This document shows, piece after piece, positions 3,066 through 61,805 of a stretch of DNA of 64,000 bases. This DNA is from a virus. Each line of letters starts with the position of its first letter. The first letter of the stretch is position 1. Where the stretch lies: positions 3,389 to 67,388 of IMG/VR virus record IMGVR_UViG_3300033996_001333; one strand, given 5' to 3'. The notes under the pieces are model-generated. The model did not search any database. It had not been told where the DNA came from and worked only from the letters and a program-made list of their open reading frames with translations. The position numbers and the translations under genes were made by a program.

Positions 3066-3130
3066 CCGTTTGCTCGGGGACGGTTTCCCGGCTTGGTTTC
3101 TCGAAAAGAAAGGGCTATAATACCTATAGC
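3061..3130 (+). promoter_or_regulatory. intergenic hairpin-TATAAT element copy 2
   Basis: GTTAACCGTTTGCTCGGGGACGGTTTCCCGGCTTGG...GGGCTATAATACCTATAGCCC. Double motif plus -10-like box. Confidence 0.55.
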
Positions 3131-3138
3131 CCAAACAA

Positions 3139-3154
3139 CCCCCCCCCCCCCCCC
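3139..3154 (+). repeat. C16 homopolymer tract in the EF-Ts leader
   Basis: 16 consecutive C between the -10-like box and the ATG at 3162. No SD sequence. Confidence 0.9.
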
Positions 3155-3161
3155 AAGTAAC

Positions 3162-3770
3162 ATGTCTTCCACCCCTCCAACAATCCTACAAGTTAAGTCC
3201 CTGCGAGAAAAGACCGGTGCGGGCCTGATTCTCTGCAAAGAAGCACTCATTTTTTCTGACAGTGATGAGGCCGGTGCGATCACGTGGCTGCGGCAGAAAG
3301 GAGTCGCCCTGGCTGACGGCAAGATCGGTCGGAGCGCACGAGAAGGTACTGTGGGCAGCTACATTCACACTGGCGGTAAGGTTGGAGTCCTTATCGAGGT
3401 CAACTGCGAAACGGACTTTGTGGCCAAGTCCGAACCCTTTCAGGAACTTGTTCGAAATCTTTCGATGCAAATTGCAGCGTGCCCCTCTGTGTGCCACGTT
3501 TCAATCTTTGATATCCCTGAGGAGACTCTCCTTGAGGAGACTCGGATTGAGTCCGGAAAGGCAGACCTTGCGAAGAAGCCCGAGGCAATTCGAAACAAGA
3601 TCGTTGAGGGTCGTGTGGCAAAGCGATTCAGAGAGCTGTCTCTCATGGACCAGCCCTACATCAAAGACAACTCAATGAGTATCGAAACATACGTGAAGAA
3701 CTTCGCTGCAATAGTTGGCGAAAACATCGTTGTGAAGCGATTCGTACGTTTTGTCCTCGGCAGCTCTTGA
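3162..3770 (+). CDS. tsf: translation elongation factor Ts (EF-Ts) homolog
   Basis: LREKTGAGLILCKEAL matches the EF-Ts N-terminal UBA-like motif (LRERTGAGMMDCKKAL). GKVGVLIEVNCETDFVAKSEPFQ matches the EF-Ts core (ILEVNCQTDFVAK). The C-terminus matches KPExI..KIVEGR...LSLLxQPFI. The track ORF 3093 has an N-terminal extension through the poly-C tract that is probably not translated. Confidence 0.8.
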   Translation: MSSTPPTILQVKSLREKTGAGLILCKEALIFSDSDEAGAITWLRQKGVALADGKIGRSAREGTVGSYIHTGGKVGVLIEVNCETDFVAKSEPFQELVRNLSMQIAACPSVCHVSIFDIPEETLLEETRIESGKADLAKKPEAIRNKIVEGRVAKRFRELSLMDQPYIKDNSMSIETYVKNFAAIVGENIVVKRFVRFVLGSS

Positions 3771-3784
3771 GTCTCCTTAAACAA

Positions 3785-4051
3785 ATGTGGTGCCCAGCCC
3801 TTTTACCATTGTGGATGCGAATGCCCCTGCCTCCGAGGGGCAAAAGACTCGAAGAGCTTCGAGCTGAGACCCTAGCCCTGAAGGAGGAAGAACTTTCCCT
3901 GAAGGAGGAAGAACTTTCCTACCGAGAAGACACACTGAGGCTAAGAGCCGAAGAGCTGAGGCTAAGAGCCCAGACCCTGGCCCTTAAAGAGCTGGGGCTT
4001 GAAATTGAGTTAAACGAGTTAAACGAGTTGAAACAACCCCGAAAACAATGA
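3785..4051 (+). CDS. coiled-coil protein with internal tandem repeats
   Basis: Repeats EELSLKEEELS and LRLRAEELRLRAQ. The DNA has a 21-bp tandem duplication at 3878-3921 and 3x GAGTTAAAC at 4008-4035. Confidence 0.4.
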   Translation: MWCPALLPLWMRMPLPPRGKRLEELRAETLALKEEELSLKEEELSYREDTLRLRAEELRLRAQTLALKELGLEIELNELNELKQPRKQ

Positions 4052-4260
4052 ACATCGAACTTGCAACACCTGGAACACGAGTAGCCTACGTCCCACTTCA
4101 TGCCTCAGGATGCCTAGACCACTTTGACGTTGAGTACGGCACGGTATCCTCTCACAATGGTAAGAATGTTTTCGTAAAGTTCAACGAGGCAGTGTCCCGT
4201 TTTGGGTGGGACGGGGCTACATCTCAGGCTTGTGACCCTGCCGATTTAGTAAAGGTTTGA
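4048..4260 (+). CDS. hypothetical protein
   Basis: 70 aa. Start overlaps the upstream stop (ATGA). Confidence 0.4.
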   Translation: MNIELATPGTRVAYVPLHASGCLDHFDVEYGTVSSHNGKNVFVKFNEAVSRFGWDGATSQACDPADLVKV

Positions 4261-4354
4261 CCGATTAGCCCTTAGCGGGTTTCCCTGTCTTGTTCACGTT
4301 ACAAACACCCGCTACACTTAGTTATCATACTCCGAAAACAACCTGAGCTTAAGC

Positions 4355-4612
4355 ATGGACAAGCCTTTCCTCTTGATTGCCGGTGATCATTACTACCCTT
4401 CACAAGGGTCAGAAGATTGGATAGCTCGTTTTGAAACTGTGAGCGAGGCTAGAGAGCAAATCGAGTACGTTGATTGTCCACGATTCTTCAAGTCTGGCCC
4501 CATGAAAGGCCAACTAAAAAGCAACAACATAACCTACCGAATTAAGTGCAGCAAAGACCCAGACCAGGAGTACGACTGGTACGAGATTGTTGACGTAAGG
4601 GACTGGGATTGA
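4355..4612 (+). CDS. hypothetical protein
   Basis: 85 aa ORF. Confidence 0.45.
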   Translation: MDKPFLLIAGDHYYPSQGSEDWIARFETVSEAREQIEYVDCPRFFKSGPMKGQLKSNNITYRIKCSKDPDQEYDWYEIVDVRDWD

Positions 4613-4654
4613 AAACCGCTAGTAACACACGTAGACAAACCAGTAACTGGAAAA

Positions 4655-5797
4655 ATGACAATTACACGAAAAGAAATTGAAGACGGGATGATCCTGTTTT
4701 GCAAGTCAGGCAGCCACGCCTATGGCCTCAACACCGAGATGTCCGACTTGGACTTTAAGGGAATCTGTGTGGCGCCACAGCGGTTTTACACCACTCTCGA
4801 AACATTTGAGCAAAAGGATAAGGGGTGGGTAGGGGAGCAACAAGACGAGGGTGAGTTCAACTCTAGATTCCCTGAGTTAGATAACTCGGATTCAGTGGTG
4901 TACGGCATTCGCAGGTACCTGAGCTTGTTGCGGTCGCAAAACCCCAACATTTTGGAGATGCTCTGGCAGACTCCCGACAGCTACCTGTACCTTGACTTTC
5001 TGGGGCAGTCGCTAATTGACAACCGGAGGAAGCTAATTTCCAGGAGAATCTCTGGCACATTCGTTCAGTACGCAAGGTCCCAGATCAAGAAAATGGAGAC
5101 TCACCGCAAATGGCTCTTAAACCCTCCAACACGGCGACCGGAGTGGGAGGACTACGGTGTCTCTTCCCCGAGCTTAACCCCGTCTCAAATCGAGTCTTTC
5201 ATCGAGTACTTGTACTTGCTGATTAAAGACAGAATCGAGTACTACCAACCTTCAGTCGAGCTGTACGAGCTTCTCAACGACCGTGTTGATTGGAAAGGAA
5301 TTTTGAAGCAGAGTGTCTTACCGGAGGAGTGCTTCAATGAAACACAGAAAATCACGAGAGCAAGCGATGAGTACATGGCCCTTCTCCACTCAAGCCAACA
5401 GTACCGGTCAGATTTAAAACGGTGGAGTAATTACCAAGATTGGTTGACTAATCGGAATGTGAAGCGATCCGAAATTGAGCGGGCCTGTGGGTACGACGGG
5501 AAGAACGCCAGCCACTGTGTTCGACTTATGAAAATGGCCATTGAGGGAATGCGAACCGGAGAGCTTCTTGTGAATAGAAAGTTGGTTGGGGACGCAGATT
5601 TTCTTCTGGACATTAAGTACGGCAGGATTACGTATGACGAACTAAGCACAATTGTAACTCAGCTCTTTAAGGAGGCTGAGCACGTGGGGAAGAACGAGTG
5701 CGTCTTGCCGAACACGGTAGATGACCAACTCATCAACACTCTCTGTGCTGAGACTGTGGAAAAATTTCAAAGTCTCGGTTGTATTGAGAACCGGTGA
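4655..5797 (+). CDS. pol-beta-type nucleotidyltransferase (PF10127/RlaP-like)
   Basis: Near the N-terminus, GSHAYGLNTEMSDLDFKG matches the GS...DxD nucleotidyltransferase motif. 380 aa. Confidence 0.55.
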   Translation: MTITRKEIEDGMILFCKSGSHAYGLNTEMSDLDFKGICVAPQRFYTTLETFEQKDKGWVGEQQDEGEFNSRFPELDNSDSVVYGIRRYLSLLRSQNPNILEMLWQTPDSYLYLDFLGQSLIDNRRKLISRRISGTFVQYARSQIKKMETHRKWLLNPPTRRPEWEDYGVSSPSLTPSQIESFIEYLYLLIKDRIEYYQPSVELYELLNDRVDWKGILKQSVLPEECFNETQKITRASDEYMALLHSSQQYRSDLKRWSNYQDWLTNRNVKRSEIERACGYDGKNASHCVRLMKMAIEGMRTGELLVNRKLVGDADFLLDIKYGRITYDELSTIVTQLFKEAEHVGKNECVLPNTVDDQLINTLCAETVEKFQSLGCIENR

Positions 5798-6306
5798 GCG
5801 CAAGGGTAACATTTTCTGTGCGAATGCATACTACTCCCATGACAATTGAGACCGAAGCCGTCGAAAAAATTGAGTTGGTTTTCTCGCACATAAAAAACGT
5901 GCAAAGGAGCTGTTACAAGCTTGGCCTGAAGCTAATGAAACGCGGCGACATTGAGCTGGGGCGCAACTTAATCGCAAACGGGCAGATCCATGACAATTCA
6001 AAGTTTAAGGGAATTGAGTTTGCACACCTTTTTCATTCAGACCCCTTGCTGTCCGAAGTCGTAAAACACCATCAGTCAGTGAACCCGCACCACCCTGAAT
6101 ACTGGGGGAGCATTCACGACATGCCCAAAGTTTACGTCGCGGAGATGGTTTGCGATTGGTACGCAAGGTCCACCGAGTTCGGAACAGGAGTGAGAGAGTG
6201 GATTGACGACAAGGCAACCGAAAAGTTCGCCTTTACAGTTGAAGATCCCATCTACGCGACCATACAGGAAATGCTATCGTTACTCCTTGAGCCTTCCTTC
6301 GCCTGA
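5794..6306 (+). CDS. hypothetical protein, possibly HD-like
   Basis: GTG start overlapping the upstream stop. The His/Asp-rich region HSDP...HHQSVNPHHPEY is only a weak match. Confidence 0.35.
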   Translation: MSARVTFSVRMHTTPMTIETEAVEKIELVFSHIKNVQRSCYKLGLKLMKRGDIELGRNLIANGQIHDNSKFKGIEFAHLFHSDPLLSEVVKHHQSVNPHHPEYWGSIHDMPKVYVAEMVCDWYARSTEFGTGVREWIDDKATEKFAFTVEDPIYATIQEMLSLLLEPSFA

Positions 6307-6333
6307 CTCCTGCAATTTCTTGGCTAAACCAGA

Positions 6334-6398
6334 GGCGGTTAACCGCTTGCTCCGGGGCGGTTTCCCGGCTTGCTTCTGCTCGGCAGAAACGGTATAGT
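6334..6398 (+). promoter_or_regulatory. intergenic element copy 3 (double motif)
   Basis: GGCGGTTAACCGCTTGCTCCGGGGCGGTTTCCCGGCTTGCTTCTGCTCGGCAGAAACGGTATAGT. Confidence 0.6.
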
Positions 6399-6414
6399 AT
6401 TTACATGAGCAGCG

Positions 6415-6693
6415 GTGCTCAGACACTTAGCCCTCAACTCAGGAGATCCAATGGACTTTCAGGAATTTGTCGAATGGGCTTCTAACCAGCCTCAGACCCA
6501 GGGTATTCGGTGGGGTCAGCACCTTGTTAACCAGCTCATGAAGCTGAGCCCCACGGCTTATAGCCGAGTCCCAGAGGACCTAGACCCCTTCTACAGCGAC
6601 ACTCTTGTCCCAGGGTTCCTGGCCTTCCTGGGCGATAACTGGGGGAGTCTTACCACTCCGCTGTACCACCCTGAGATGGAGGAATGCGCTTAG
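6415..6693 (+). CDS. hypothetical protein
   Basis: 92 aa ORF downstream of element copy 3. Confidence 0.45.
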   Translation: MLRHLALNSGDPMDFQEFVEWASNQPQTQGIRWGQHLVNQLMKLSPTAYSRVPEDLDPFYSDTLVPGFLAFLGDNWGSLTTPLYHPEMEECA

Positions 6694-6869
6694 TCCCCCG
6701 GTCAAACAAAGCCAGGGCAGCCCTGGAAAAGTCTATGGGCGGTGACAGCGCCGTTCGGCTGGAAAAACGCACTGGCAACAAAGTACTTGTCTCTTCCAAG
6801 AGTGGGTACTGCGTGTGGGTCGACCTTTCGGGAGACCCGAACTGGGATCTTGTCCTTTAATCCTGCCCC

Positions 6870-7169
6870 ATGAAGTTTATACTGAGTTTAACCCTCTGCG
6901 CTCTATGCTTGTTTTCTTCGGCACAACCTGCTTTCGCCTACCACCCGGAAGGGTGGAGACCTTTCTGGTCAAAGGACGCCCAGAGAGTCACAGAGGAAAA
7001 CTGCAAGTTAGTCGCTGGAGCACAAAGTGTTGGGACACAAACTTGGGAGTTTCTCTACAAGTGCCCCAACGGTGACTCCTTCTGGTCCGAGGTTCTCATT
7101 CCATTCAACCCCACACTGCTTACTCCGCCCTTCTCATCAAATGGAAAAGCGTCACCAGACTCAGACTGA
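6870..7169 (+). CDS. small secreted protein
   Basis: N-terminal signal peptide MKFILSLTLCALCLFSSAQPAFA. 99 aa. Confidence 0.45.
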   Translation: MKFILSLTLCALCLFSSAQPAFAYHPEGWRPFWSKDAQRVTEENCKLVAGAQSVGTQTWEFLYKCPNGDSFWSEVLIPFNPTLLTPPFSSNGKASPDSD

Positions 7170-7356
7170 AGTCCCCTCGCAGACCTTGGGAGACCCCATA
7201 GCCCTGAGTAGCACAGTTGTGGATGGCCTCTGGATCCTGATAATTTTGGCACTATCCCTCTCTGCTCTATTCAGGGTCTCCCGAAGCAGGGTCTTTCGCC
7301 AGAAGTCCCGGTTTTGACTACACTAAAAACACTCTCCGGTAACTCCCGCAAAGTCC

Positions 7357-7542
7357 ATGGAACTCTATCGTAGTCTCACAGCTGAAGAAGAGGACTCTTT
7401 TCGTAGCTGGGCCAGGGAAAACTACGTCCCGTTTTCTGAGATAAAAGGATTCTGGCACCCTTCTGTGCAAGCAGAGTGTGTGCTGATAAACTCTCAAGCT
7501 GGCCAAGATTTCTCCACATCGGCTCTACTGAAGGAGTTTTGA
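7357..7542 (+). CDS. hypothetical protein
   Basis: 61 aa ORF. Confidence 0.35.
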   Translation: MELYRSLTAEEEDSFRSWARENYVPFSEIKGFWHPSVQAECVLINSQAGQDFSTSALLKEF

Positions 7543-7589
7543 CGGCATGCTCCGGTTTACTTTCACTTAGCACTAACTACACTGTTAAA

Positions 7590-7847
7590 ATGAGGCAATC
7601 CAGCCAACCCGACCCCCAGCTCACTCTGATGATCGAAGTTGATGACCTGCTTATGAAGTACCGAAAAGAGATACTCGAAACGAAGCAGGTTATCCCTTGG
7701 GCGGGTACGAAGGTTGGACCCTGCTACGCTGTTCCCCAGGACCAAATTGTAGGTGGGTTTGAGGGGCTGAAGAAAGAGCTTTTGGCGCTTTTAGTACGAA
7801 AATACGACGTGAAACCGATACTTACGGGGCTTGCCGCTCATGATTGA
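7590..7847 (+). CDS. hypothetical protein
   Basis: Internal ATG of track ORF 7476..7847. Coding-like composition. Confidence 0.4.
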   Translation: MRQSSQPDPQLTLMIEVDDLLMKYRKEILETKQVIPWAGTKVGPCYAVPQDQIVGGFEGLKKELLALLVRKYDVKPILTGLAAHD

Positions 7848-8037
7848 AGGGGACCTTGAAAAGTTGGTAGAAAATAGAGACATTCTGAGCTACTCTTACT
7901 CGGAGGTTAAAGGCTGCCAGGGTTCACATGGCGGAGAATACCTGCAACTCATTTTACCGTCCGGAGCTTGCATAGGGATAGGCTCCTGGTCAACACCCAC
8001 CCCTGAAACGAGTGGGCTAAGCATAGAAGTTTATTAG
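7831..8037 (+). CDS. hypothetical protein
   Basis: 68 aa ORF ending just before the ncRNA region. Confidence 0.35.
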   Translation: MPLMIEGDLEKLVENRDILSYSYSEVKGCQGSHGGEYLQLILPSGACIGIGSWSTPTPETSGLSIEVY

Positions 8038-8039
8038 GC

Positions 8040-8400
8040 GGACAGTCCTACCACACGACATTAAACTGGGTGTAGCTCTGGAAGATAGTGCCCTATACAG
8101 GGGTTCGAATCCCCTCACCTCCATTTGAGAACGTGACCGTCCCTTCTTCAACCTTCCGACTTACTGAGAAGGCAGGGTCACTGTGGGTTAAACTCCCACC
8201 TCTAGTCAAGGGGGTGCCATGGTCTCGCTAGGGTAAAGATGTCGCCTGAGTGAAAGCCGCTTGCATAAGCACAAAATAGACGCTAACAACATCGTCAAAT
8301 TCGAGAGGATTGCCGTTGCCGTTTGAGCAACCGCACTCTGACTCATAACTCGGGGGTTTCGGCCCCCTTACACCGCCAACTTTCCTAGCCAAAACAGCAC
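8040..8400 (+). ncRNA. ssrA: tmRNA (ssrA), circularly permuted two-piece type
   Basis: ORF-free 390-nt region. Acceptor piece: T-arm AGGGGTTCGAATCCCCT plus 3' acceptor strand CACCTCC at 8099-8123. Coding piece: GGGGGTGCCATGGTCTCGCTAGGG at 8210 resembles the tmRNA 5' end GGGGCUG.AAUGGUUUCGACG, and pairs with the 3' strand including a G3-U wobble. The tag ORF at 8282-8326, GCT AAC AAC ATC GTC AAA TTC GAG AGG ATT GCC GTT GCC GTT TGA, encodes (A)ANNIVKFERIAVAV*. Compare the Synechocystis tag ANNIVPFARKAAPVAA. Confidence 0.65.
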
Positions 8401-8428
8401 CCTACACTCCAACCCACGCTGAAACACT

Positions 8429-8797
8429 GTGAACCTTGAACTAAAGGCCCTTAGTCCTTCAGGAAAGAAAAAGGCCAAGAAACTAATGTTGGACCCCGTA
8501 GAAATACGAAACTACGGTGTATTTAACTGGGCAGATTTCAAAAGTTCAGAAGACTTCTACCGGTTTAAGGTGGAGTGGGACACACACCAGGTCATGCGGG
8601 AGATCTTGTCTGGTTTGAACACCGAAGAGGTCACCCCGAATCCGACGAGCGACGCGGGAATTAACTGGACGAACTTGTCCGAGTCTCAAGAGAAAGTATT
8701 TAAGAACTTTGCCTGCATCGTCCTTGACCTAAGGCAGAAAGTGGAAAACGCTGAAGAAGCGGCGAGAGGAGTTTCACGGAGGTTGGACCGAGTATGA
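8429..8797 (+). CDS. hypothetical protein
   Basis: 122 aa ORF. Confidence 0.45.
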   Translation: MNLELKALSPSGKKKAKKLMLDPVEIRNYGVFNWADFKSSEDFYRFKVEWDTHQVMREILSGLNTEEVTPNPTSDAGINWTNLSESQEKVFKNFACIVLDLRQKVENAEEAARGVSRRLDRV

Positions 8798-9029
8798 AGT
8801 TGTTGTTGCTGAGGGGCCAGACGGAAGAAGGTATATAGCCGAACAAATAGAGCTTTCGAACTCAGTTTGGGACTACGACAGAGAAAGTTGGTTAGTAACT
8901 GAGTTTGGTCCTAGAATTGGTTCCGATGTGTTGCCTTCAGATTGGTGGGACAAGGACGCCATAAACCACTGGGGACGTTCTCAAACTTACGACAATCTTG
9001 ATGCGTTTGCCATACTAGCATCCCACTAA
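8733..9029 (+). CDS. coding-like ORF without a canonical start; possible +1-frame continuation of 8429..8797
   Basis: Open frame YEVVVAEGPDGRRYIAEQIELSNSVWDYDRESW...DNLDAFAILASH* with no ATG or GTG. It overlaps the previous ORF in another frame. Confidence 0.3.
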   Translation, partial: GRKWKTLKKRREEFHGGWTEYEVVVAEGPDGRRYIAEQIELSNSVWDYDRESWLVTEFGPRIGSDVLPSDWWDKDAINHWGRSQTYDNLDAFAILASH

Positions 9030-9083
9030 GACTCCGACACGTTAACCCATCAGAACCAGGCAGGGGCCTAAATCAGTAGGAAA

Positions 9084-9779
9084 ATGAAGATCCAATCAAA
9101 ATTCAAGGACTACTACGACTATGTGGAGTATTTGTACTCTCAAGAAGGTGGTGACCCCTCGAACACTTACGTTCGCAAAGAGCTGTCACAGCCTGACCAA
9201 CCGGACTCTTCGAATGTGTACGTAAACGTCAACGAAACCGAACGCATACCAGAAGTACCCACCAGAAGAGACTACTACGGGGAGATCCTTCCGTGGGCGT
9301 TTAAGTGGTGCTCAGTTTGCGGAGAGCTGTACCTTCTTGTCTCAAAGATAAGTTTTACTCCTGATTGGAGACTAATTACAGAAGACCACCCCTCTCTGCG
9401 CATGGTACACAGCAGCCACCGAAGATGGTTCGAAGAAATTAGGATGGACGAAATATGGGGAGTTCCGAACAAAAGTTGTGTCGATATCTCAAGACAACTT
9501 CAGGTTCCCGTATTCGTGATAGAGCCCACTCCGAGGTTCAGCGGACTCAAAAAGTCGCCTCAAGTGGCCGTAAGTCGCGAGATCCCAATCCTTGGGAAGT
9601 TGGGATTCGCCTCAGCAATTCCGGCTGAGCAAATGTACCAAAATATATCAATGTTTATGGCCTCGCTGAGGGATAGCCCAGACAGTGTTCCGCCTGTGAG
9701 TGTATCGGACAAGGATCGACTCGTGCAGAAGGGGTTTGACGCTAAGATATCTTTTCGAGGAAAGTTCCCCCGTGCATAG
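9084..9779 (+). CDS. hypothetical protein
   Basis: 231 aa ORF. Confidence 0.5.
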   Translation: MKIQSKFKDYYDYVEYLYSQEGGDPSNTYVRKELSQPDQPDSSNVYVNVNETERIPEVPTRRDYYGEILPWAFKWCSVCGELYLLVSKISFTPDWRLITEDHPSLRMVHSSHRRWFEEIRMDEIWGVPNKSCVDISRQLQVPVFVIEPTPRFSGLKKSPQVAVSREIPILGKLGFASAIPAEQMYQNISMFMASLRDSPDSVPPVSVSDKDRLVQKGFDAKISFRGKFPRA

Positions 9780-16426: not shown

Positions 16427-16440
16427 TTTTACCCCGTGCG

Positions 16441-16488
16441 CGGCGGGAAACCGTCCTTTACCCTCGCCCCTAAACAAGCTATAGTAAG
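16441..16488 (+). promoter_or_regulatory. intergenic element copy 6 (GC hairpin in inverted orientation)
   Basis: CGGCGGGAAACCGTCC...CTAAACAAGCTATAGT. Confidence 0.45.
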
Positions 16489-16507
16489 CTCACACCGTAA
16501 AACAACA

Positions 16508-17449
16508 ATGCACGTGACCGAAACTAAAGAGTATCAGAAAACAGAGCCGATTGAGGTTTACTCGAATCGCGACGGACAAAACCTGTACAAGATTTCAAAG
16601 ACCTCCTTTACGTTCAGTGCCGGTGAAAGGCAGGTCCGGTTGCACGACACTCCAACAAATTCGACTGACATTATCGTAGACGCAGACATACACAGCGGAG
16701 AAAGTTTCGCAGAACTTCTTCTGACTCTGTCGGCCATCAAAGACCTTCCTGTGCTGCGAAGTCTACAATTGGACATCCCGTACTTACCTTATAGCCGCCA
16801 AGACCGCCAGTGCGCTGAAGGGGAAGCGTTTTCGCTAAGAACTTTTGTAAAAGCTCTCGCCCCTTATCTTAAGGGAGTGTGCGACCGGGTGTACACATGG
16901 GACGTGCACAGCCACGTTGCAAATGAGCTCTTTCGAACCGAAATCGGCTGCGAGTTCAACAACCTACAACCCCAACTGTTTCTCCAGAAGTTCAAAGACC
17001 GGGGGCAAGAGTTTAGTGCTGAGACAATTGTGATTGCTCCGGATAAAGGTGCAGTCGAAAGAGCAACCCTCGTACAACAAACACTGGGGCTCCACTCTGT
17101 AGTGTACGCTACGAAAGTTCGCAACCCTGAAGACGGGCAAATCCTAAGGACGGAAGTTCCAGAAGACGTCAGTTACAAGGGCAAAAACCTTCTGATTGTG
17201 GACGACATCTGCGATGGCGGTCGCACCTTTATCGAACTCGCCAAGGTGCTACGTCAGTTCGACCCGTCTCGAATTGACCTCTATGTAACTCACGGAATTT
17301 TCTCCAAGGGTTTTAAGGTGTTTGGGAGCTTAATCGACAACTTTTTCGTTGCGAACTTGCTCCCGTATAAAGCCTTTTACCAAGAGTTACCCTCGTACTT
17401 GACCTACCTTCGTACCGAAAACTACCCCACCCCACGCAACCAACCATGA
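16508..17449 (+). CDS. ribose-phosphate pyrophosphokinase homolog (Prs-like, or ADP-ribose pyrophosphokinase Adps-like)
   Basis: IPYLPYSRQDRQ matches MPYxGYARQDR. LIVDDICDGGRT is the PRPP-binding loop. Stop overlaps the next ATG. Confidence 0.75.
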   Translation: MHVTETKEYQKTEPIEVYSNRDGQNLYKISKTSFTFSAGERQVRLHDTPTNSTDIIVDADIHSGESFAELLLTLSAIKDLPVLRSLQLDIPYLPYSRQDRQCAEGEAFSLRTFVKALAPYLKGVCDRVYTWDVHSHVANELFRTEIGCEFNNLQPQLFLQKFKDRGQEFSAETIVIAPDKGAVERATLVQQTLGLHSVVYATKVRNPEDGQILRTEVPEDVSYKGKNLLIVDDICDGGRTFIELAKVLRQFDPSRIDLYVTHGIFSKGFKVFGSLIDNFFVANLLPYKAFYQELPSYLTYLRTENYPTPRNQP

Positions 17450-18960
17450 AAATTTTTGCGCCCCACGCAACCGACTTTTACAAGACAGGACACCCTTCGC
17501 AAAACCCTGAAGGCACCGAAGTAATCTACGCCAACATGACGGCAAGGTCCGACCGTCTGGCGAACATGCCCGCTGACTTCGACCACAAGATCGTCGTGGC
17601 CAACATCCAGGGGACAATGAAATGGATGCTGAGGGATCTTTGGAATGAGACCTTTTTTCAGCAACCCAAGGCCAAGGTGTTGGACAAATACAAGCGGCGA
17701 ATGGACTCCTCGCTCGGAGAAGGTGTTGTCGGCACTGACCACATTGCTGAGCTTCACGACCTGGGTTACATGCCGCTGCATGTGAAGGCACTACCCGAGG
17801 GCAGCCGTGTTAACATCGGAGTGCCGTTTCTGACGGCGCAAAACACACACAATGAGTTTAAGTGGCTGGCCCCGTGGTTAACCAACTATGTCGAAACCGC
17901 CAAGTCGTCTGAGCTGTGGAAGGCCATCAACGTGGCAACCATCGCCTACGAGTTTCGCCGTCTTCTCGACCACTACGCTGAAACCACAGGGAGTAATCCG
18001 CAGTTTGTTGACTTTCAGGGGCACGACTTCTCCGCTCGCGGAGTCGGAGGCATTCACGATGCCGCTGCGCACCAAATCGGCCACCTTTTTTCCTTCAAGG
18101 GCACGGACACAATCCTTTCCATTGATTATTTGGAGGATTACTACGATTGCGGTTCCAATTTCATTGGGGGTAGTATTCCCGCTACGGAACACAGTGTGAC
18201 CTGCCTTGGCGGTCAAAGAAACGAATTAGAGACAATTCGTCGAATTATTACAAAAGTATACCCAACTGGGCCGGTCAGTGTAGTTTTTGACACTTGGAAC
18301 TACTGGGATGCACTGACTGTTATTGCACCCGCACTTAAGGAAGACATCTTAAATCGTCGTCCGAATTCTCAGGGCATCGCTAAGGTCGTATTCCGTCCCG
18401 ACAGTGGTGACCCTGAGAAAATCATCTGCGGTGACGCTGACGCTGAGCCAGGTAGCCGAGAGTACAAAGGTTCGCTTGAGCTTTTATGGGAGGTCTTCGG
18501 AGGAACGGTAAACGAGAAGGGTTTCAAGGTACTGAACCCTCGAGTTGGCTTAATTTACGGCGACTCAATCACTCTTCCACGGGCCAGGGCCATCCTGGAG
18601 CACATGAGGCAGCTTGGGTGGGCGTCCGAAAACATCGTGTTCGGTATCGGTTCCTACACCTATCAATACCATACACGGGACACGTTCGGTATCGCATACA
18701 AAACGACCTGGGGGCAAATTAACGGTGTCGCCGTTGAAACTATGAAGGACCCCATTACGGATCGCGGCACGAAAAAGTCGGCGTTGGGTCTACTGCGAGT
18801 TGAAAAGGATGGGGAGAACTTTGTTCTTCATCAACAGCAGACTCGTGAGCAAGAGCAGCGAGGCGAGCTTCGCACCGTGTTCTTAAACAGCGTGGTTTAC
18901 GGGGAGGATGTAAACTCACTGCCTAACATTCGTACTCGACTTCTCAACCCCGCAGCTTAG
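17446..18960 (+). CDS. nicotinamide phosphoribosyltransferase homolog (Nampt/NadV-like, or Namat-like)
   Basis: 504 aa. N-terminal TDFYKTGH (compare the Nampt TDSYK motif), internal FKGTDT. ATGA overlap with the Prs-like gene. Confidence 0.7.
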   Translation: MKIFAPHATDFYKTGHPSQNPEGTEVIYANMTARSDRLANMPADFDHKIVVANIQGTMKWMLRDLWNETFFQQPKAKVLDKYKRRMDSSLGEGVVGTDHIAELHDLGYMPLHVKALPEGSRVNIGVPFLTAQNTHNEFKWLAPWLTNYVETAKSSELWKAINVATIAYEFRRLLDHYAETTGSNPQFVDFQGHDFSARGVGGIHDAAAHQIGHLFSFKGTDTILSIDYLEDYYDCGSNFIGGSIPATEHSVTCLGGQRNELETIRRIITKVYPTGPVSVVFDTWNYWDALTVIAPALKEDILNRRPNSQGIAKVVFRPDSGDPEKIICGDADAEPGSREYKGSLELLWEVFGGTVNEKGFKVLNPRVGLIYGDSITLPRARAILEHMRQLGWASENIVFGIGSYTYQYHTRDTFGIAYKTTWGQINGVAVETMKDPITDRGTKKSALGLLRVEKDGENFVLHQQQTREQEQRGELRTVFLNSVVYGEDVNSLPNIRTRLLNPAA

Positions 18961-23950: not shown

Positions 23951-24601
23951 GTGACCAAAGCACCCCAACCCATGAAGTCTCCCCCTGAATCAGTTACAGG
24001 AAAACTTTTGCTGAAGCCAGGGGACAGTGTGTTTGTTCCTGGAAAAATACTTAAAAATTCACCCGACGGTCGAACCTGGGGCACTGAAGTTCCTTACCTT
24101 CACTTTCGGAAGAGTCCAGTAAAAGACGGTCTCTACGTTGTGTCCGACATCTGGATGCACCCGAAAGCAACAGACCCGAACGTTCCATCCTCGTACTGCT
24201 ACACTCTGGTAAGAGTCCGTGAGGATCGAACCTGGACAAATGAACGGCGTAATCACAGAACACTAAGAAGCTGCTTCTCCCCGGAAGACATGTCAGAGAC
24301 AAAACTCCCGTACAACTGCCTCGACTGGGACCAGCTCCTTCGAGACCAAGTAGTTACGTCCTACGCGTACACCCCTGGTGAAAAGTTCGACATGGACGAG
24401 TTTAGAAAAGATCTGGGCCAAGTTCTTTACAAGCACAAGGTTACTCTGTCAGTAGACACGAAGTTCTCCGACGACTGGGACGAGCACGGCACAAACCACC
24501 TTGTTGTCCTCGCTAACGGGGAAATAAGGGGTGACCTTGGGTCTGACTTTCCAAAGCGGAGATCAGCGCCAGCCTGGGACAGTGGGAAACGAAATCGCTA
24601 G
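23951..24601 (+). CDS. hypothetical protein
   Basis: 216 aa ORF upstream of the RNA ligase. Confidence 0.5.
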   Translation: MTKAPQPMKSPPESVTGKLLLKPGDSVFVPGKILKNSPDGRTWGTEVPYLHFRKSPVKDGLYVVSDIWMHPKATDPNVPSSYCYTLVRVREDRTWTNERRNHRTLRSCFSPEDMSETKLPYNCLDWDQLLRDQVVTSYAYTPGEKFDMDEFRKDLGQVLYKHKVTLSVDTKFSDDWDEHGTNHLVVLANGEIRGDLGSDFPKRRSAPAWDSGKRNR

Positions 24602-24656
24602 TCCCAACCTTGCCCAGATAAACAAAACTCAACGGTCCCACCCACCTAAAGCTGTC

Positions 24657-25769
24657 ATGGAACCTTTAAACCTGCGCCACTTTCTAATCGACTGGTTAAA
24701 CTACCGGGTCGAGACTGCTTTTGAAGCACTTGCCGAGCACGACATTCGTGTTGCTCGCGACGAACGTTACCCTGCTCTTTTTAACTTGAAGTATGGCAGT
24801 GTAATGGCGGACAAGTCACTACCGATTGTTCGTGCCTGCCGTGGTGCCGTAGTCGAACTTGTTGACGATGGCACGGGCTCCCCGTACTTTCGGCTGGTTG
24901 CGTACGCCTTCGACCGCTTTTTCAACGTTGGCGAGGGGTATGCCGCTGAGATTGATTGGTCCACTGCCCGTGTAGCTGAGAAGTATGACGGGTCTCTGAT
25001 CAAGTTGTTCAACTATAAAGGAGAGTGGTTGGTATCAACATCGGGTTCAGTCGCTGGTTCTTCGGAAGTCGGGACCACGGGTCGCTCCTTCTCCGAGTTG
25101 TTTTGGCACGTTTTTAACGAAGTTGGATATGACCGGGCTGACCTCGACCCTTATTTTGTCTACGTCTACGAGTTGTGCCACAAAGACAACAAAATTGTTG
25201 TAGACTACGAGACTCCCTTACTACCTCTTCTGGCTGTTCGAAGCCGCTTTGACGATCTAAACGAAGTGGATCTCAAGCATTTTGAAAACCGCTTCAACAT
25301 CGCTCAGACCTACGACCTGCGCTCACATGAAGCTGTAACGCAGTTTGTAAACGACTCCTCTCGTGGTACCGCTGAAGGCGTAATTATTGTCGACGGAAAC
25401 GGAAACCGCCAGAAAGACAAGTCCAACGTCTATTGTCAGTTGCACAGGGTTAAAGGAAACGGCGAACCGGATTTCTCCGAGCTTTTCCTGAACGACGACT
25501 TGGAAGAGTTTCTGCTTCACTTTCCCGAGTATCGTGGGGGTTTTGACGTTCACCTGCGTTCCATCGAAGTGATGGAGAGTGCGGTGAGCGAGAACATGAG
25601 GGCTCACAACCATCTTAACCAGAAGGATTTCGCTCAAGCCGTACTTGCCGAGTCAAAAGAACTTTCTGGAGCATGCTTTGCGATTCGATCCGGCAAAGTC
25701 GGATCCTTTGCAGAGTGGCTCGAAGGTTTAACCCCGAAAAAGCTCGACGTTTTGCTCGGAATTTCCTGA
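24657..25769 (+). CDS. RNA ligase, T4 Rnl1-like
   Basis: AEKYDGSLIKLF is nucleotidyltransferase motif I (KxDG), like T4 Rnl1 KEDGSL. 370 aa taken from the internal ATG (MEPLNL). Confidence 0.65.
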   Translation: MEPLNLRHFLIDWLNYRVETAFEALAEHDIRVARDERYPALFNLKYGSVMADKSLPIVRACRGAVVELVDDGTGSPYFRLVAYAFDRFFNVGEGYAAEIDWSTARVAEKYDGSLIKLFNYKGEWLVSTSGSVAGSSEVGTTGRSFSELFWHVFNEVGYDRADLDPYFVYVYELCHKDNKIVVDYETPLLPLLAVRSRFDDLNEVDLKHFENRFNIAQTYDLRSHEAVTQFVNDSSRGTAEGVIIVDGNGNRQKDKSNVYCQLHRVKGNGEPDFSELFLNDDLEEFLLHFPEYRGGFDVHLRSIEVMESAVSENMRAHNHLNQKDFAQAVLAESKELSGACFAIRSGKVGSFAEWLEGLTPKKLDVLLGIS

Positions 25770-39159: not shown

Positions 39160-40281
39160 ATGGCAAACATCGAACGCAAACTCGCCTCCGTCCGACAAGT
39201 AACGGAGATTCGCCCAATCCCGGACGCCGACGCAATTGAGTGCGCCATCGTGGGAGGTGGCTGGCCCGTTGTCGTGAAGAAGGGGGAGTTCCAAGCTGGC
39301 GATCTTGCAATCTACTTCGAGATTGACTCGTGGATCCCCCACGGGCTTGCCCCGTTCTTGTCAAAGGGGAAGGAACCAAGGGAGTACAATGGAGTGAAGG
39401 GGGAAAGGTTGAAAACCGTCCGGCTCCGTGGCCAAGTCTCTCAGGGTCTCCTACTTCGCTTCTCGGACATCTCTCCAAGCTTCTACGTTGTTTCGCTAGC
39501 TGAACCTTATGGGGGGAGGGGATCTCTCCGAGTTGATGAGTGTGTGTGGGAAGAAGGCGAAGATTTCACTCTAGAGTTTGGCATTCAGAAATGGGAGGCC
39601 ACGGTCCCCGCTTGCCTTGCCGGACAAGTGCGTGGAAACTTCCCGAGTTTTTTGGTTAAGAGTGACCAAGAGAGATGTCAAAATATCGTGAGAAAAATCT
39701 TCGAGGAGCACAAGGAGGAAACCTACGAAGTATCCTTGAAGCTGGACGGGTCTTCCTGCACCATTTATGCCCGAGACGGGGACAGTGGCGTGTGTAGCCG
39801 CAACCTAGACCTTAAGGAAACAGAAGGAAACAGCTTCTGGAAGGCTGCTCGAGAACAAGGTGTAATCGACGCCTTGCTGTCCTATAATAAGGAAACCGGT
39901 CGCAACATTGCTCTTCAGATGGAGCTGTGCGGTGAAGGAATTCAAGGAAACCAAGAAGGAATCAAAGGACAACGGCTTTTTCTTTTTGACGTCTTCGACA
40001 TCGACACTCAGACCTACATGAAGCCGGGGCAGCGACTTGTTTTCCTTGACGAGGTTTTGACTGAGCTTGGGGCCAAGTTGGAACACACTCCCATTATTGA
40101 CCTTCGAACTTACGTTGCCGGACGATTCGCCAACCTTGACGAGCTACTTGCTTATGCAGATGGTCCGTCTATGAACCCAAAAGTCAAGCGTGAAGGTGTG
40201 GTGTTCAAATCGTACGACTCCGCGTTCTCCTTCAAGGCCATTAGCAACGAGTGGTTGCTGTGGAAAGGGAAGAAAGGGTGA
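39160..40281 (+). CDS. RNA ligase, DraRnl/DRB0094-like (Rnl5 family)
   Basis: N-terminal KLASVRQVTEIRPIPDADAIECAIVGGGWPVVVKKGEFQAGDLAIYFEIDSWIP resembles the DRB0094-family N-domain. Motif I candidate VSLKLDGSS (KxDG). Confidence 0.55.
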   Translation: MANIERKLASVRQVTEIRPIPDADAIECAIVGGGWPVVVKKGEFQAGDLAIYFEIDSWIPHGLAPFLSKGKEPREYNGVKGERLKTVRLRGQVSQGLLLRFSDISPSFYVVSLAEPYGGRGSLRVDECVWEEGEDFTLEFGIQKWEATVPACLAGQVRGNFPSFLVKSDQERCQNIVRKIFEEHKEETYEVSLKLDGSSCTIYARDGDSGVCSRNLDLKETEGNSFWKAAREQGVIDALLSYNKETGRNIALQMELCGEGIQGNQEGIKGQRLFLFDVFDIDTQTYMKPGQRLVFLDEVLTELGAKLEHTPIIDLRTYVAGRFANLDELLAYADGPSMNPKVKREGVVFKSYDSAFSFKAISNEWLLWKGKKG

Positions 40282-44204: not shown

Positions 44205-44360
44205 ATGGAAACCGTCACGATTTCAAAAACCGAATACGAAAGATTAGTTGAAGGGCAACTTGAACTCAACGCTCTTCATCAATTTGGGGTTGATAACTGG
44301 TGTTGGTACGATGACGCCGTTAGTTCAATTCAAGAAGAAGAAGAAAATGATGAGCCCTAG
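44205..44360 (+). CDS. small acidic protein (51 aa)
   Basis: METVTISKTEYERLVEGQLELNALHQFGVDNWCWYDD... Confidence 0.3.
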   Translation: METVTISKTEYERLVEGQLELNALHQFGVDNWCWYDDAVSSIQEEEENDEP

Positions 44361-46648: not shown

Positions 46649-48133
46649 ATGACAACGCCATCCTTTTTAAACGCACTCGAAAACGAGTTTAACCAAACCA
46701 TCACCGCTAACGGTGCAAAGGCATACAAGTCCACCGAGTCTAAGTGCCTGGACCTCTTTGGAAAGATTGCAGCTTGCCGTGACAACATCAGCGAAGCAAC
46801 TCGCCTATTCAATCTTGCTTATGCCGAAAACCCTGAGACCGCAACTCGAATCCTGTTTTGGGCACGCGACATTCGTGGGGGCCAGGGAGAGCGAAAGATC
46901 TTTCGAGAAGTTTTTAAGGAACTCGTCCTCAATGACGCTGCAATTGGTGCCAGGCTAGTTAGCCTGATTCCACAGTACGGTCGCTGGGATGATGTGGTAG
47001 CCCTCGACGGTACCTTAGTTTGGGGCATCGCACTCGAAGCAATTAAGGCACAACTGAACGCCGACCTAAATACGGAAGTTGGAAAGTCAGTGTCACTTCT
47101 GGCAAAGTGGCTGCCTTCCATTAACGCTTCCAGCCAGGACTCTAAGAGGATTGGCCGAAAAATTGCCGAAGCAATGGGTTGGACCGAGAGACAGTACCGC
47201 AAGGCACTGACTGCCCTCAGGACCCAAGTCAAAATTGTTGAGCAGCCAATGTGTGCTCGTGAGTGGGAAAGCATTGACTATAGCAAGTTGCCTTCTCGGG
47301 CCGGCTTTATGTACCGTAAAGCTTTCGTCAAGCGCGACGGCAACCGCTACCAATCCTACCTTGACTCGGTAGAAAAAGGTGAGGCAAAAATCAATGCCGG
47401 TACGATCTACCCTTACGAGATCGTGCACAAGTACCTTTACGGGGGCGATAGGAGTGATCAAACCTTAAACTTAATGTGGGAAGCTCTACCCAACTACATG
47501 GAAGGAGAGCAGCTGAACGGCCTGGTAATTGCCGACGTCTCAGGATCAATGGGAAACAACGGCGGCATGCCCATGGCGGTTTCAATCTCGCTGGCGATGT
47601 ACATCGCTGAGCGTAACACCGGGGCATGGAAGGATAAGTTCCTAACCTTCTCCGGAAGTCCGCAGTTGCAGTCGGTTACAGGGAGAAACGTTGCTGAGCG
47701 TGTTAGTAACCTTAGTCGGGCCGACTGGGGTGCGAATACAGACCTGCAAGCAGTCTTCAATCTTGTGTTGGCTACCGCAACGAGGAACCATATTCCTGAG
47801 GGGGAAATGCCGCGCAAGCTCATCATTGTCTCAGACATGCAGTTTGATTCCTGCTGCAGAAACAACTCAGTGACAAACTTTGAGGCGGTGCGAATCAAGT
47901 ATGCTCAAGCAGGGTATTCCTTGCCGGAACTTGTCTTCTGGAATGTTAGCTCTAGCGGCAACGTACCTATGAAAATGCATGATACGGGGACTTGCCTGGT
48001 CTCCGGATGCAGCCCTTCAATCCTGAAAGCTGTGCTTACTGGCGGGGTAATTACGCCTGTAGGGGTTATGCGTGACGCTGTTTACACTGAAAGGTACGAC
48101 GCTGTCGGTGCCGTATTTGCTGAAGGAGCATGA
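46649..48133 (+). CDS. vWA/MIDAS protein with N-terminal helical TROVE/DUF2828-like region (Ro60-like architecture)
   Basis: C-terminal LVIADVSGSMGNNGGMPMAVSISLAMYIAE carries the vWA MIDAS motif DxSGS. The helical N-terminal 300 aa and the 494-aa size fit DUF2828/Ro60-like proteins. Confidence 0.5.
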   Translation: MTTPSFLNALENEFNQTITANGAKAYKSTESKCLDLFGKIAACRDNISEATRLFNLAYAENPETATRILFWARDIRGGQGERKIFREVFKELVLNDAAIGARLVSLIPQYGRWDDVVALDGTLVWGIALEAIKAQLNADLNTEVGKSVSLLAKWLPSINASSQDSKRIGRKIAEAMGWTERQYRKALTALRTQVKIVEQPMCAREWESIDYSKLPSRAGFMYRKAFVKRDGNRYQSYLDSVEKGEAKINAGTIYPYEIVHKYLYGGDRSDQTLNLMWEALPNYMEGEQLNGLVIADVSGSMGNNGGMPMAVSISLAMYIAERNTGAWKDKFLTFSGSPQLQSVTGRNVAERVSNLSRADWGANTDLQAVFNLVLATATRNHIPEGEMPRKLIIVSDMQFDSCCRNNSVTNFEAVRIKYAQAGYSLPELVFWNVSSSGNVPMKMHDTGTCLVSGCSPSILKAVLTGGVITPVGVMRDAVYTERYDAVGAVFAEGA

Positions 48134-49985: not shown

Positions 49986-50097
49986 GGGACCGTAGCTCAA
50001 CTGGTAGAGCACGAAAAGTTATCTTGACAAAGATACATCAGCAATTAAATTACCTCTTTTAAAGGCGCGGTTGCAGGTTCGAGTCCTGCCGGTCCCA
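49986..50097 (+). tRNA. tRNA-like gene with about 40-nt insertion in the anticodon region
   Basis: Acceptor GGGACCG/CGGTCCC, TA, D-arm GCTC-AACTGGTA-GAGC, T-arm GCAGG-TTCGAGT-CCTGC. 61 nt lie between the D-arm and the T-arm where 21-22 are expected. Confidence 0.4.
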
Positions 50098-54903: not shown

Positions 54904-54992
54904 GGGCGTGTGGTGTACGGTGCACAGGGACCCTTATACAGTCCTCTCCGGCAGATTACCGGCTAGTTAGGGTTCGACTCCCTACACGCCTA
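54904..54992 (+). tRNA. class II-like tRNA (long variable arm), anticodon uncertain (possibly UAU)
   Basis: Acceptor GGGCGTG/CACGCCT, T-arm AGGG-TTCGACT-CCCT, variable hairpin CCGG-CAGATTA-CCGG. The anticodon stem GGACC/AGTCC has a 31-39 mismatch. 89 nt. Confidence 0.45.
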
Positions 54993-55082
54993 CTTAGTTT
55001 CAAGTCCTCGAAAACTCGTTAAAGAACACACCCACAGGTCATATCCGGTGAACGACACAGGAGTGGCCCACCACGGTGACAA

Positions 55083-61541: not shown

Positions 61542-61805
61542 ATGAGCCATACTTCCGCGATTACACAGGTCTTTACACAAGGTGAAGGTGAAGAAATTCA
61601 CCGTTCGGTGAGTCTCCCCAACTCAGACTGGCTCGTTTTAGCTCAGTGTGCCGAAGCCTTTTCCTCCACCTTTAGGGCACAAGCGAGTCAGGTAGTTGCC
61701 ACTTATGTGACACGTGGACAGCTTGATTTGGCTGTGAGCGAGGCAGCGAAAATGAACATATTGCTTCAACAGCTAGACAGCATTCACATTGCCCTTATGT
61801 CGTGA
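61542..61805 (+). CDS. hypothetical protein
   Basis: 87 aa ORF. Confidence 0.4.
   Translation: MSHTSAITQVFTQGEGEEIHRSVSLPNSDWLVLAQCAEAFSSTFRAQASQVVATYVTRGQLDLAVSEAAKMNILLQQLDSIHIALMS

Follow-up and report, generated by a model that had tools for sequence, protein, structure and literature searches.

Transfer-messenger RNA (tmRNA) genes have been listed in phages since the Bxz1-type mycobacteriophages (PMC4131195). They occur in 402 of 18,146 phage genomes, where the unique sequences include 53 two-piece molecules, 50 of them from aquatic phages (PMC9004378), and with 79 unique phage sequences they are represented in the 2025 tmRNA database (PMC11915505). The cyanophages S-CBWM1 and S-CAM3 are both entered as 'Permuted' in Table S1 of Buchholz et al. 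2022 (PMC9004378), and the phage-borne permuted tmRNA of cyanobacterial type is therefore already an established kind. In the present study, we analyzed a stretch of 64,000 nucleotides (nt) from the virus record IMGVR_UViG_3300033996_001333 of IMG/VR (positions 3,389 to 67,388 of that record; hereafter the window), in which a sequence-only reading had proposed such a gene. The novelty implied in that reading is not supported, cyanophage permuted tmRNAs being present in the same Table S1 (PMC9004378). We are confident, on the evidence below, that the window carries a genuine, selectively maintained permuted tmRNA gene (ssrA) of cyanobacterial type, located on a large uncultivated phage that most likely infects picocyanobacteria.

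The ARAGORN run suggested earlier called a permuted tmRNA ('tmRNA*') at 8034-8417 with the tag ANNIVKFERIAVAV*. With the Rfam covariance models the outcome was divided: RF04321 (tmRNA_permuted) matched 8068-8326 over the full model (positions 1-213) with 67.9 bits against a gathering threshold of 47 (E = 6e-11 over the whole 64-kb window), while RF01851 (cyano_tmRNA) stayed below its own threshold, a point to which we return. The gene occupies a block free of open reading frames (ORFs), as had been claimed: between the ORFs at 7831-8037 and 8429-8797 there is none of at least 60 aa (8038-8428). Within it, the 3' half of the tRNA-like domain (8099-8123) lies upstream of the 5' strand (8210-8216), which is the permuted order. 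The individual parts could be located as described, namely the T-arm, 3' acceptor strand and discriminator as AGGGG-TTCGAAT-CCCCT-CACCTCC-A, the 5' acceptor strand GGGGGTG 86 nt downstream with a 7-bp pairing that includes G3:U70, the tmRNA-like 5' sequence CCATGGTCTCGCTAGGG directly behind it, and the tag frame with its codons (GCT AAC AAC ATC GTC AAA TTC GAG AGG ATT GCC GTT GCC GTT TGA), for which ARAGORN calls the same tag. Permuted order, tRNA-like domain and ANNIV-type cyanobacterial tag are thus borne out by two detectors, whose results lie well outside what chance would produce, and by covariation in 23 relatives. Helix 2, by contrast, had been sought in the wrong place: instead of joining 8040-8090 with 8370-8400, it pairs 8068-8095 with 8229-8247.

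Relatives were collected by pattern scans of IMG/VR and JGI metagenomes followed by ARAGORN, and dozens of viral contigs were found to carry cyanobacterial-type permuted tmRNAs. The window gene belongs to a set of these, the VAV family, with the 14-residue tags ANNIVKFERIAVAV, ANKIVKFERIAVAV, ANKIVKFERTAVAV, ANKIVKFERAVVAV, AN[NK]IVSFRRTAVAV and ANNIVSFSRTAVAV, seen so far only on viral or unassigned metagenome contigs. In an alignment of 23 distinct full-length members (A2), from which the intervening segments were removed and in which pairs were counted for the structure derived from the window, the share of paired cells is 90.5%; column shuffles yield 79.1%, none of 500 attaining the observed share, and slid partners yield 41-49%. 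The acceptor stem is fully paired in 23 of 23 relatives with double changes at four of its seven pairs, and the T-arm is likewise 100% paired, with compensatory changes at four of five. The proximal part of helix 2 is 85% paired (4/7 pairs changed on both sides) and the distal part 64%; the terminal hairpin reaches 89.9%, with compensation at four of six pairs. In the stop-codon hairpin, 92.7% paired, a single pair shows five types (UA, AU, UG, CG and GC), and the closing stem covaries from GUUGC/GCAAC in the window to GUGGC/GCCAC in L052 and GUAGC/GCUAC in L120. The small hairpin before the tag frame is 96% paired; being nearly invariant, it is uninformative on covariation.

The identity elements for alanine are conserved as well. 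Eight acceptor-stem sequences exist in the VAV family, e.g., GGGUCCG/CGGAUCC and GGGGCUA/UAGCUCC, all of them with U70 and A73, and none of the 23 relatives departs from the pairs U70:G3, C71-G2 and C72-G1. At the peptide level, codons vary synonymously at fixed residues across 24 family members (AAC/AAT, ATC/ATT, GTC/GTA/GTT, TTC/TTT): N2, I4, V5, F7, A11, V12 and A13 use two to four synonymous codons, with four each at A11 and V12. The pentamer UAGAC ahead of the frame is equivalent to UAGUC of Escherichia coli, whose A86 corresponds to its A and which has a frame-setting role (PMC2481249), and this A at position -4 is retained in all aligned relatives. Paired and compensated T-arm and acceptor stem, invariant G3:U70 and synonymous tag codons together indicate a functional, translated RNA; judged from these sequence patterns, it is under selection for charging with alanine and for translation of its tag.

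Compared with the described systems, the locus stands nearest in many features to S-CBWM1 (MG450654 / NC_048106, Aokuangvirus), whose tmRNA gene, too, lies among tRNA and auxiliary genes of a phage genome. The leader motif AGUCCUACCACACGAC and the GGGGGUG/CACCUCC acceptor stem are shared, helix 2 and the pre-ORF hairpin are similar, and the tag is a short one of ANKIV type with a non-AA end (ANKIVAFHRQAVSCA). The S-CBWM1 gene differs in keeping a 3' pseudoknot, in an RF01851 score of 123 rather than 54.7 bits, in an intervening segment of 17 rather than 86 nt, and in a tag that ends SCA rather than VAV; the two tmRNAs are about 65% identical, whereas the rest of the genomes is without nucleotide match. 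We found no discussion of the tmRNA in the S-CBWM1 and S-CREM1 literature. In GenBank, the permuted tmRNAs of S-CBWM1 (L001/L093, 23,885-24,202) and Sf-FS3 (L301) are unannotated, and that of S-SSM7 (L302) is overlapped by a 'hypothetical protein' coding sequence, SSSM7_025. The T4-like cyanomyoviruses (S-CAM3, S-SSM7, Sf-FS3 and many IMG/VR contigs) also carry phage-borne, permuted tmRNAs of cyanobacterial type, often with non-canonical tag ends and in several cases with an intervening segment of 81-90 nt; unlike the window, they have retained the 3' pseudoknot, their tags carry an N-terminal extension (A[NK]TSD.AANNIVAFSR...) and a STVAA, ELATA or ELVTA end, and their long segments are real tRNA-Tyr or tRNA-Asn genes where that of the window has only a tRNA-like fold.

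The tmRNAs of picocyanobacteria themselves (Synechococcus, Cyanobium and Prochlorococcus; RF01851) share with the window the permuted order, G3:U70, A73 and the terminal hairpin and, among the matches listed, tags that start ANNIV or ANKIV with F at position 7 and R at 9, but are 16 residues long and end PVAA (AANNIVKFERIAVAV in the window against AANNIVRFSRQAAPVAA in the host). The host stop codon lies 3' of the tag-end hairpin and is followed by a pseudoknot; in the window it lies inside the hairpin loop and no pseudoknot follows. Further afield, the OM43 phage Melnitz and the pelagimyophages likewise carry a permuted tmRNA on lytic aquatic phages (PMC9004378), for which a role in maintaining translation or tagging proteins during infection was proposed (PMC9004378); theirs is of alphaproteobacterial type with ...ALAA tags and a glutamine riboswitch, whereas Rfam scans detected no riboswitch in the window. 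The one-piece tmRNAs of the Bxz1 group and the RNA of phage DS6A, which consists of a tRNA-like domain (TLD) only, are phage-encoded as well, but in standard gene order, and DS6A is without the tag frame that is conserved here.

The claim that the gene is phage-borne also stands. Positions 3380-9555 of the window are 99.4% identical to the IMG/VR contig UViG_3300044625_001067 (277,244 bp), identity to the 88-kb viral contig L015 is 91-94%, relatives lie on viral contigs, and the gene content is phage-like, with all 28 ORFs of at least 200 aa on the + strand. PHROG and Pfam matches comprise a T4-type RNA ligase 1, a second RNA ligase, an RlaP nucleotidyltransferase, a PNKP-type phosphatase, a nicotinamide phosphoribosyltransferase, a ribose-phosphate pyrophosphokinase, an ADP-ribosylglycohydrolase, an HNH endonuclease, a T7 gp5.9-like domain, a 5'-3' exonuclease and a thymidylate kinase; three or four tRNAs were found in the window by ARAGORN and Rfam. 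A megablast search of the whole window against 50,697 phage records gave no match; the sole nucleotide match to an isolate was the tmRNA of S-CBWM1 (about 190 nt, 79%), and in tblastn the neighbouring ORF 9084-9779 matched only distant Ralstonia and Cellulophaga phages. An EF-Ts homologue is encoded at 3093-3770 (+; PF00889, 100 bits), and its nearest named relatives are all cyanobacterial (60-63% identity), closer ones of about 200 aa (74-95%) being on metagenome contigs. From the cyanobacterial type of the tmRNA and these EF-Ts relatives, a picocyanobacterial host is the best inference. One EF-Ts relative lies on a contig of 33,119 bp, and the L246 contig, with its VAV-type tmRNA, is also 33,119 bp long; in tblastn against the 50,697 phage records EF-Ts gave few matches, mostly resembling bacterial contamination.

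Several observations weigh against a working gene. RF01851, aligned over 8043-8367, scored 54.7 bits against a gathering threshold of 70, which we attribute to the 83 nt present where the model expects 9 and to the model hairpins past the tag frame that stay unaligned; VAV-family members score 76-159, with the window lineage under the threshold. The pseudoknot and hairpins that this model places 3' of the tag frame were not found, its two hairpins there having no aligned counterpart in the window. Folded as a single sequence, the precursor formed the acceptor stem and folded the intervening segment as before, while the T-arm mispaired with the terminal hairpin (z = -1.5); thermodynamic folding alone is uninformative in this case. 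The conserved D-loop analogue GGUUUCGAC, which contacts T-loop and SmpB, reads GGUCUCGCU in the window, with GG kept and GAC replaced; UCGCU occurs only in the window lineage (the window, L015, L298 and L292) and UCGAC in every other relative and in the host. A consensus scan of 7600-8600 found neither a sigma-70-type promoter nor an intrinsic terminator, and Pfam detected no SmpB in essentially all + strand ORFs of the 64-kb window, so function would depend on host SmpB. Lastly, the contig L255 (IMGVR_UViG_3300044970_001522, 190 kb, about 94.5% identical) has lost some 425 nt corresponding to window positions ~7874-8298 (at 4189-4540 of L255). The deletion takes away the small ORF 7831-8037 and, from the tmRNA gene, the tRNA-like domain together with the intervening segment and tag codons 1-5, so that ...AAATTCGAGAGGATTGCCGTTGCCGTTTGA and the 3' hairpin are all that is left; at least under some conditions, therefore, the gene can be dispensed with.

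Some of these points could be taken to mean that the RNA, instead of rescuing ribosomes itself, serves mainly as an inhibitor or decoy, one that would stop trans-translation in the host by titrating its SmpB, AlaRS or EF-Tu. Such a role has been put forward for DS6A, the mycobacteriophage with a TLD-only RNA, and in E. coli tmRNA is inhibited by a molecule of similar kind (PMC4131195, PMC11915505); the existence of such phage molecules, the atypical D-loop analogue and the lack of a detected phage SmpB in the window all fit. A pure decoy, however, would need no tag frame, no UAGAC and no stop-codon hairpin, and here the frame is intact and under peptide-level selection, the UAGAC is retained and the hairpin covaries, which makes this explanation very unlikely in our judgment. 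We give slightly less credit still to a decaying passenger, that is, a tmRNA gene acquired long ago, now non-functional and heading for loss, as the loss of most of the gene in L255, the off-consensus D-loop, the missing 3' pseudoknot and the degrading intervening segment of L292 and L298 might suggest. However, between the window and L015, the stretch from T-arm to stop codon, intervening segment included, is 96-100% identical while the flanks are 65-95%; in L298 the mature parts are unchanged despite about 12 changes in the intervening segment; the window-specific changes at the base of helix 2 (closing pairs U-A and A-U instead of C-G and G-C) are compensatory; and the absence of the pseudoknot is common to the whole, otherwise well-conserved VAV family.

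That the window might be cellular after all, as a genomic island or prophage beside a host ssrA or as an ssrA fragment at an attachment site, deserves mention because tmRNA genes serve many elements as integration sites and the elements come to carry pieces of these genes (PMC11915505, PMC9004378), and because neither a major capsid gene nor a terminase gene was recognized in the window. The fragment version was rejected, both halves and the full tag frame being present and no integrase domain being found by Pfam in the window. Against a cellular origin in general speak the complete gene where a 3' fragment would be expected, the three IMG/VR viral contigs (88-277 kb) that match the window, the uniform strand of the 28 large ORFs, and the phage-auxiliary genes (T4-type RNA ligases, T7 gp5.9-like domain, HNH, tRNA cluster). 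In identity the tmRNA is only 46-50% to host tmRNAs, as compared with 65% to S-CBWM1 and 70% to L052, so it is not a recent host capture. Furthermore, no VAV-type tag (ANNIV/ANKIV..F...AVAV-stop) was found in 185,579 species genomes by a pattern that required the codons AAC-AAN-ATC and is accordingly not exhaustive. We regard a cellular origin as the least credible of the three, and return to a maintained, phage-borne tmRNA gene as the reading to be followed below.

The ending of the tag raises a question of its own. From species genomes at least 21 cyanobacterial tmRNAs were obtained, by a generic 14-base tag-pattern scan with at least 120 matches, swamped by chance ones; among the matches listed, 19 end AA and 2 VA, and the permuted ones all read ANNIVRFSRQAAPVAA or close variants. 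A tag-agnostic scan of viral sequences gave for cyanophages AA at about 26 loci, TA at about 20, AV at 8, CA at 2 and PA at 1, and isolates provide examples in S-SSM7 (...ELVTA) and Sf-FS3 (...ELATA). Cyanophage tmRNAs thus often depart from the canonical ending, which those of hosts, among the matches listed, seldom do. Set against the pattern ANNIV/ANKIV...PVAA, the window tag fits in its start (ANNIV-x-F-x-R), and departs in having 14 instead of 16 residues and VAV instead of VAA. In Synechocystis, reporters whose ssrA variants end ASV or AAV reach levels above those of LVA-tagged protein and below those of untagged protein (PMC2860132); valine-ending variants thus still destabilize, and a weaker degron seems likelier than the full escape from ClpXP-type degradation on which the sequence-only reading had speculated. 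We consider the VAV ending a fixed trait of a phage-only subfamily and probably a weaker or differently routed degradation signal.

A quite different account has a sizeable chance of being right, although we lean away from it: that AVAV reflects a constraint of RNA structure only, and no selection for an altered fate of the tagged protein. The AVAV codons form a hairpin, so that constraint on the RNA and constraint on the peptide are inseparable; in each of the last four codons, positions one and two are base-paired there, the last codon is always GUU within an invariant loop (CGUUUGA or UGUUUGA), and the degradation of valine-ending variants in Synechocystis (PMC2860132) fits this account too. 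Yet host tmRNAs fold the tag end into a hairpin as well and keep VAA, and other cyanophage lineages have independently arrived at non-AA ends (ATA, VTA, VPA and SCA), which argues for relaxed or changed degron selection in phages generally.

The VAV subfamily is further marked by a reduced 3' architecture. The 3' pseudoknot motif GGGGUGAGGUCAGCCUUAUCACCCAAAUGACC, present in hosts, S-CBWM1 and the T4-like cyanophage tmRNAs, is absent from all its members. Its 3' module sits on three backbones of leader and tRNA-like domain, one S-CBWM1-like (the window, L015, L052 and a metagenome set), one tRNA-flanked (L042 and L062) and one promoter-led (L120), and is therefore either old or exchanged. Three contigs, L259 (~1030-1290), L275 and L276, carry VAV-type genes with a very short helix 2, without the pre-ORF hairpin and with CTC at the GCN resume position, where the sister L284 has GCG; all three are missed by both ARAGORN and Rfam at the gathering threshold.

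The segment between the two halves, presumably excised, has a three-part fold with a minimum free energy of -26.8 kcal/mol (z = -2.1), containing a long imperfect hairpin (8133-8181) and a T-arm-like hairpin GUGGG-UUAAACU-CCCAC (8183-8199; 5-bp stem, 7-nt loop). It was rejected as a tRNA gene, with no ARAGORN call at 60% of the default thresholds and no Rfam tRNA match. The contig L282, with the acceptor stem GGGUCCG, has an 82-nt segment of the same three-way layout (z = -2.8) whose stems differ in sequence (UUAGACC/GGUCUAA and GAGAG/CUCUC). In L011 and L015 the segment is identical; in L292 and L298 it has about 12 changes, a number of them disrupting pairs (z = -0.4 and -1.0), while the mature parts are unchanged. 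Its length is 86 nt in the window lineage, as opposed to 4-17 nt in most phage genes and 6-98 nt in host genes. On several T4-like cyanophage contigs an 81-90-nt segment is a complete tRNA-Tyr or tRNA-Asn gene with spacers of 2-5 nt (tRNA-Tyr in L050, L072, L075, L064, L099 and L121; tRNA-Asn in L063, L073, L094, L114, L115 and L116), and processing of such a nested tRNA would free both tmRNA pieces simultaneously. The window segment may be a discarded spacer, left over from a nested tRNA or else serving, under weak constraint, as a tRNA-like processing element. A bolder proposal would have the VAV tmRNAs as a phage-specific redesign that, along with the ...ATA and ...VTA ends of other cyanophage tmRNAs, uncouples ribosome rescue from the host ...VAA degron, with products degraded more slowly or by a different route in infection, and the segment as a tRNA-shaped cassette recruiting RNase P and RNase Z, perhaps derived from nested tRNAs; we offer it tentatively, and as a whole it is rather unlikely. 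We found no earlier description of the VAV subfamily and its reduced 3' architecture, nor of a tRNA-like segment between the halves or of the general drift of cyanophage tags away from AA, and these features appear to be new.

The coordinates of all features are collected in Table 1.

Table 1. Features of the permuted tmRNA gene, in window coordinates
Feature	Position	Strand	Details
5' leader of acceptor piece	8034-8067	+	ARAGORN start 8034, RF01851 start 8043
Helix 2, 3' strand	8068-8098	+	distal GGGUG 8068-8072 with 8243-8247; proximal UGCCCUA 8089-8095 with 8229-8235; Rfam alignments
T-arm AGGGG / UUCGAAU / CCCCU	8099-8115	+	tRNA-like T-loop
3' acceptor strand CACCUCC and discriminator A8123	8116-8123	+	
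Intervening segment, 86 nt, presumably excised	8124-8209	+	closing stem GAG 8127-8129 / CUC 8200-8202
5' acceptor strand GGGGGUG, G3 = 8212	8210-8216	+	pairs with CACCUCC
D-loop analogue CCAUGGUCUCGC	8217-8228	+	departs from family consensus GGUUUCGA
Helix 2, 5' strand	8229-8247	+	UAGGGUA 8229-8235; CGCCU 8243-8247
Small hairpin GCUU-GCAU-AAGC before tag frame	8259-8270	+	pseudoknot 1 position in cyanobacterial model
Frame-setting UAGAC	8277-8281	+	A four nt upstream of resume codon
Tag frame	8282-8326	+	resume GCU 8282-8284; 14 codons = ANNIVKFERIAVAV; stop UGA 8324-8326; ARAGORN
Helix 5-like hairpin	8312-8334	+	GCCGUUGC 8312-8319, loop CGUUUGA 8320-8326, GCAACCGC 8327-8334
Motif GCACUCUGAC after stop codon	8333-8342	+	nearly invariant in VAV family; used as search handle
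Terminal hairpin GGGGGU-UUCG-GCCCCC	8352-8367	+	probable 3' end region of coding piece

In the leader, a small hairpin pairs GUC (8045-8047) with GAC (8057-8059) around the loop CUACCACAC; in the alignments its motif AGUCCUACC..ACGAC is common to S-CBWM1 and most relatives, and GCC/GGC replace GUC/GAC in other lineages. A helix between UUAGGCGG (8034-8041) and CCGCCAA (~8374-8380) was rejected, with no consistent covariation in relatives and tails that are unalignable. As in host genes, CCA is not encoded, UUU following A8123. The 7-nt loop of the stop-codon hairpin holds the last Val codon together with the UGA stop. For the motif behind it we do not claim GAGUG (8249-8253) with CACUC as a partner, the complement being absent in L120 and weak in L052. 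A run of U follows the terminal hairpin in most relatives, though not in the window, and hairpin and U-run suggest that the RNA would end near 8370. The contigs L246 and L261 have GGCAGUA instead of UUCGAxU as T-loop in VAV-family tmRNAs that are otherwise intact (acceptor stem GGGGCUA/UAGCUCC).

Elsewhere in the window, genes of RNA repair and NAD salvage lie at 4655-5797, 16436-18960, 24531-25769, 39160-40281, 46649-48133, 57203-57706 and 61802-62203, a set that consists of RlaP, the ribose-phosphate pyrophosphokinase and nicotinamide phosphoribosyltransferase, a T4 Rnl1-type ligase, an RNA ligase with a PHA02142 OB domain, a DUF2828/DUF7788 protein ('RNA-binding protein' in PHROG), a cytidylyltransferase-like protein and the PNKP-type phosphatase. 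Together with the tRNA, EF-Ts and tmRNA genes it looks, from gene content, like a block for translation maintenance or counter-defence. One tRNA-like match at 49986-50097 (+; Rfam tRNA, 48.5 bits) has 52 nt in place of the 13-nt anticodon-arm core, an insertion of about 39 nt, and receives no ARAGORN call, while a 90-nt tRNA-Ile (anticodon tat) called by ARAGORN at 54904-54993 (+) is not reported by Rfam at the gathering threshold. A small ORF at 44205-44360 (+) matches the T7 gp5.9 RecBCD-inhibitor domain (PF25708, 51.8 bits).

As to how the gene would work, we infer the following course. The locus would be transcribed as one precursor with the surrounding + strand genes, and its cleavage into two pieces is suggested by the gene layout: tRNA-processing enzymes of the host would act at the tRNA-like ends, with RNase P cutting 5' of G8210 and a 3' cut after A8123 being followed by CCA addition through the host enzyme, and the 86-nt intervening segment would be discarded. 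Two RNAs would result, an acceptor piece (~8034/8043-8123) and a coding piece (8210-~8370), which the acceptor stem and helix 2 would keep joined. Host AlaRS may then charge the molecule via G3:U70 and A73, host SmpB and EF-Tu would bring the complex to stalled ribosomes, and translation would restart at GCU 8282, adding (A)ANNIVKFERIAVAV. The likely benefit would be that ribosomes are kept free in infection while host and phage mRNAs are cleaved.

To the phage-encoded tmRNAs already known, the window adds a well-supported example from a cyanophage-like genome of about 277 kb. Beyond the single gene, the comparison reveals a coherent phage-only subfamily of 23 distinct sequences with a fixed non-canonical tag end and a reduced architecture, some members of which are missed by ARAGORN and by Rfam at the gathering threshold, RF01851 missing the window lineage. 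The surrounding genes (EF-Ts, RNA ligases, RlaP, NAD salvage and tRNAs) point to keeping translation running under host attack. Should tagged proteins indeed meet a different fate through the altered C-terminus, phages would tune the protein quality control of their hosts, beyond the rescue of ribosomes, and the VAV family offers a concrete set of sequences for this question of degron tuning.

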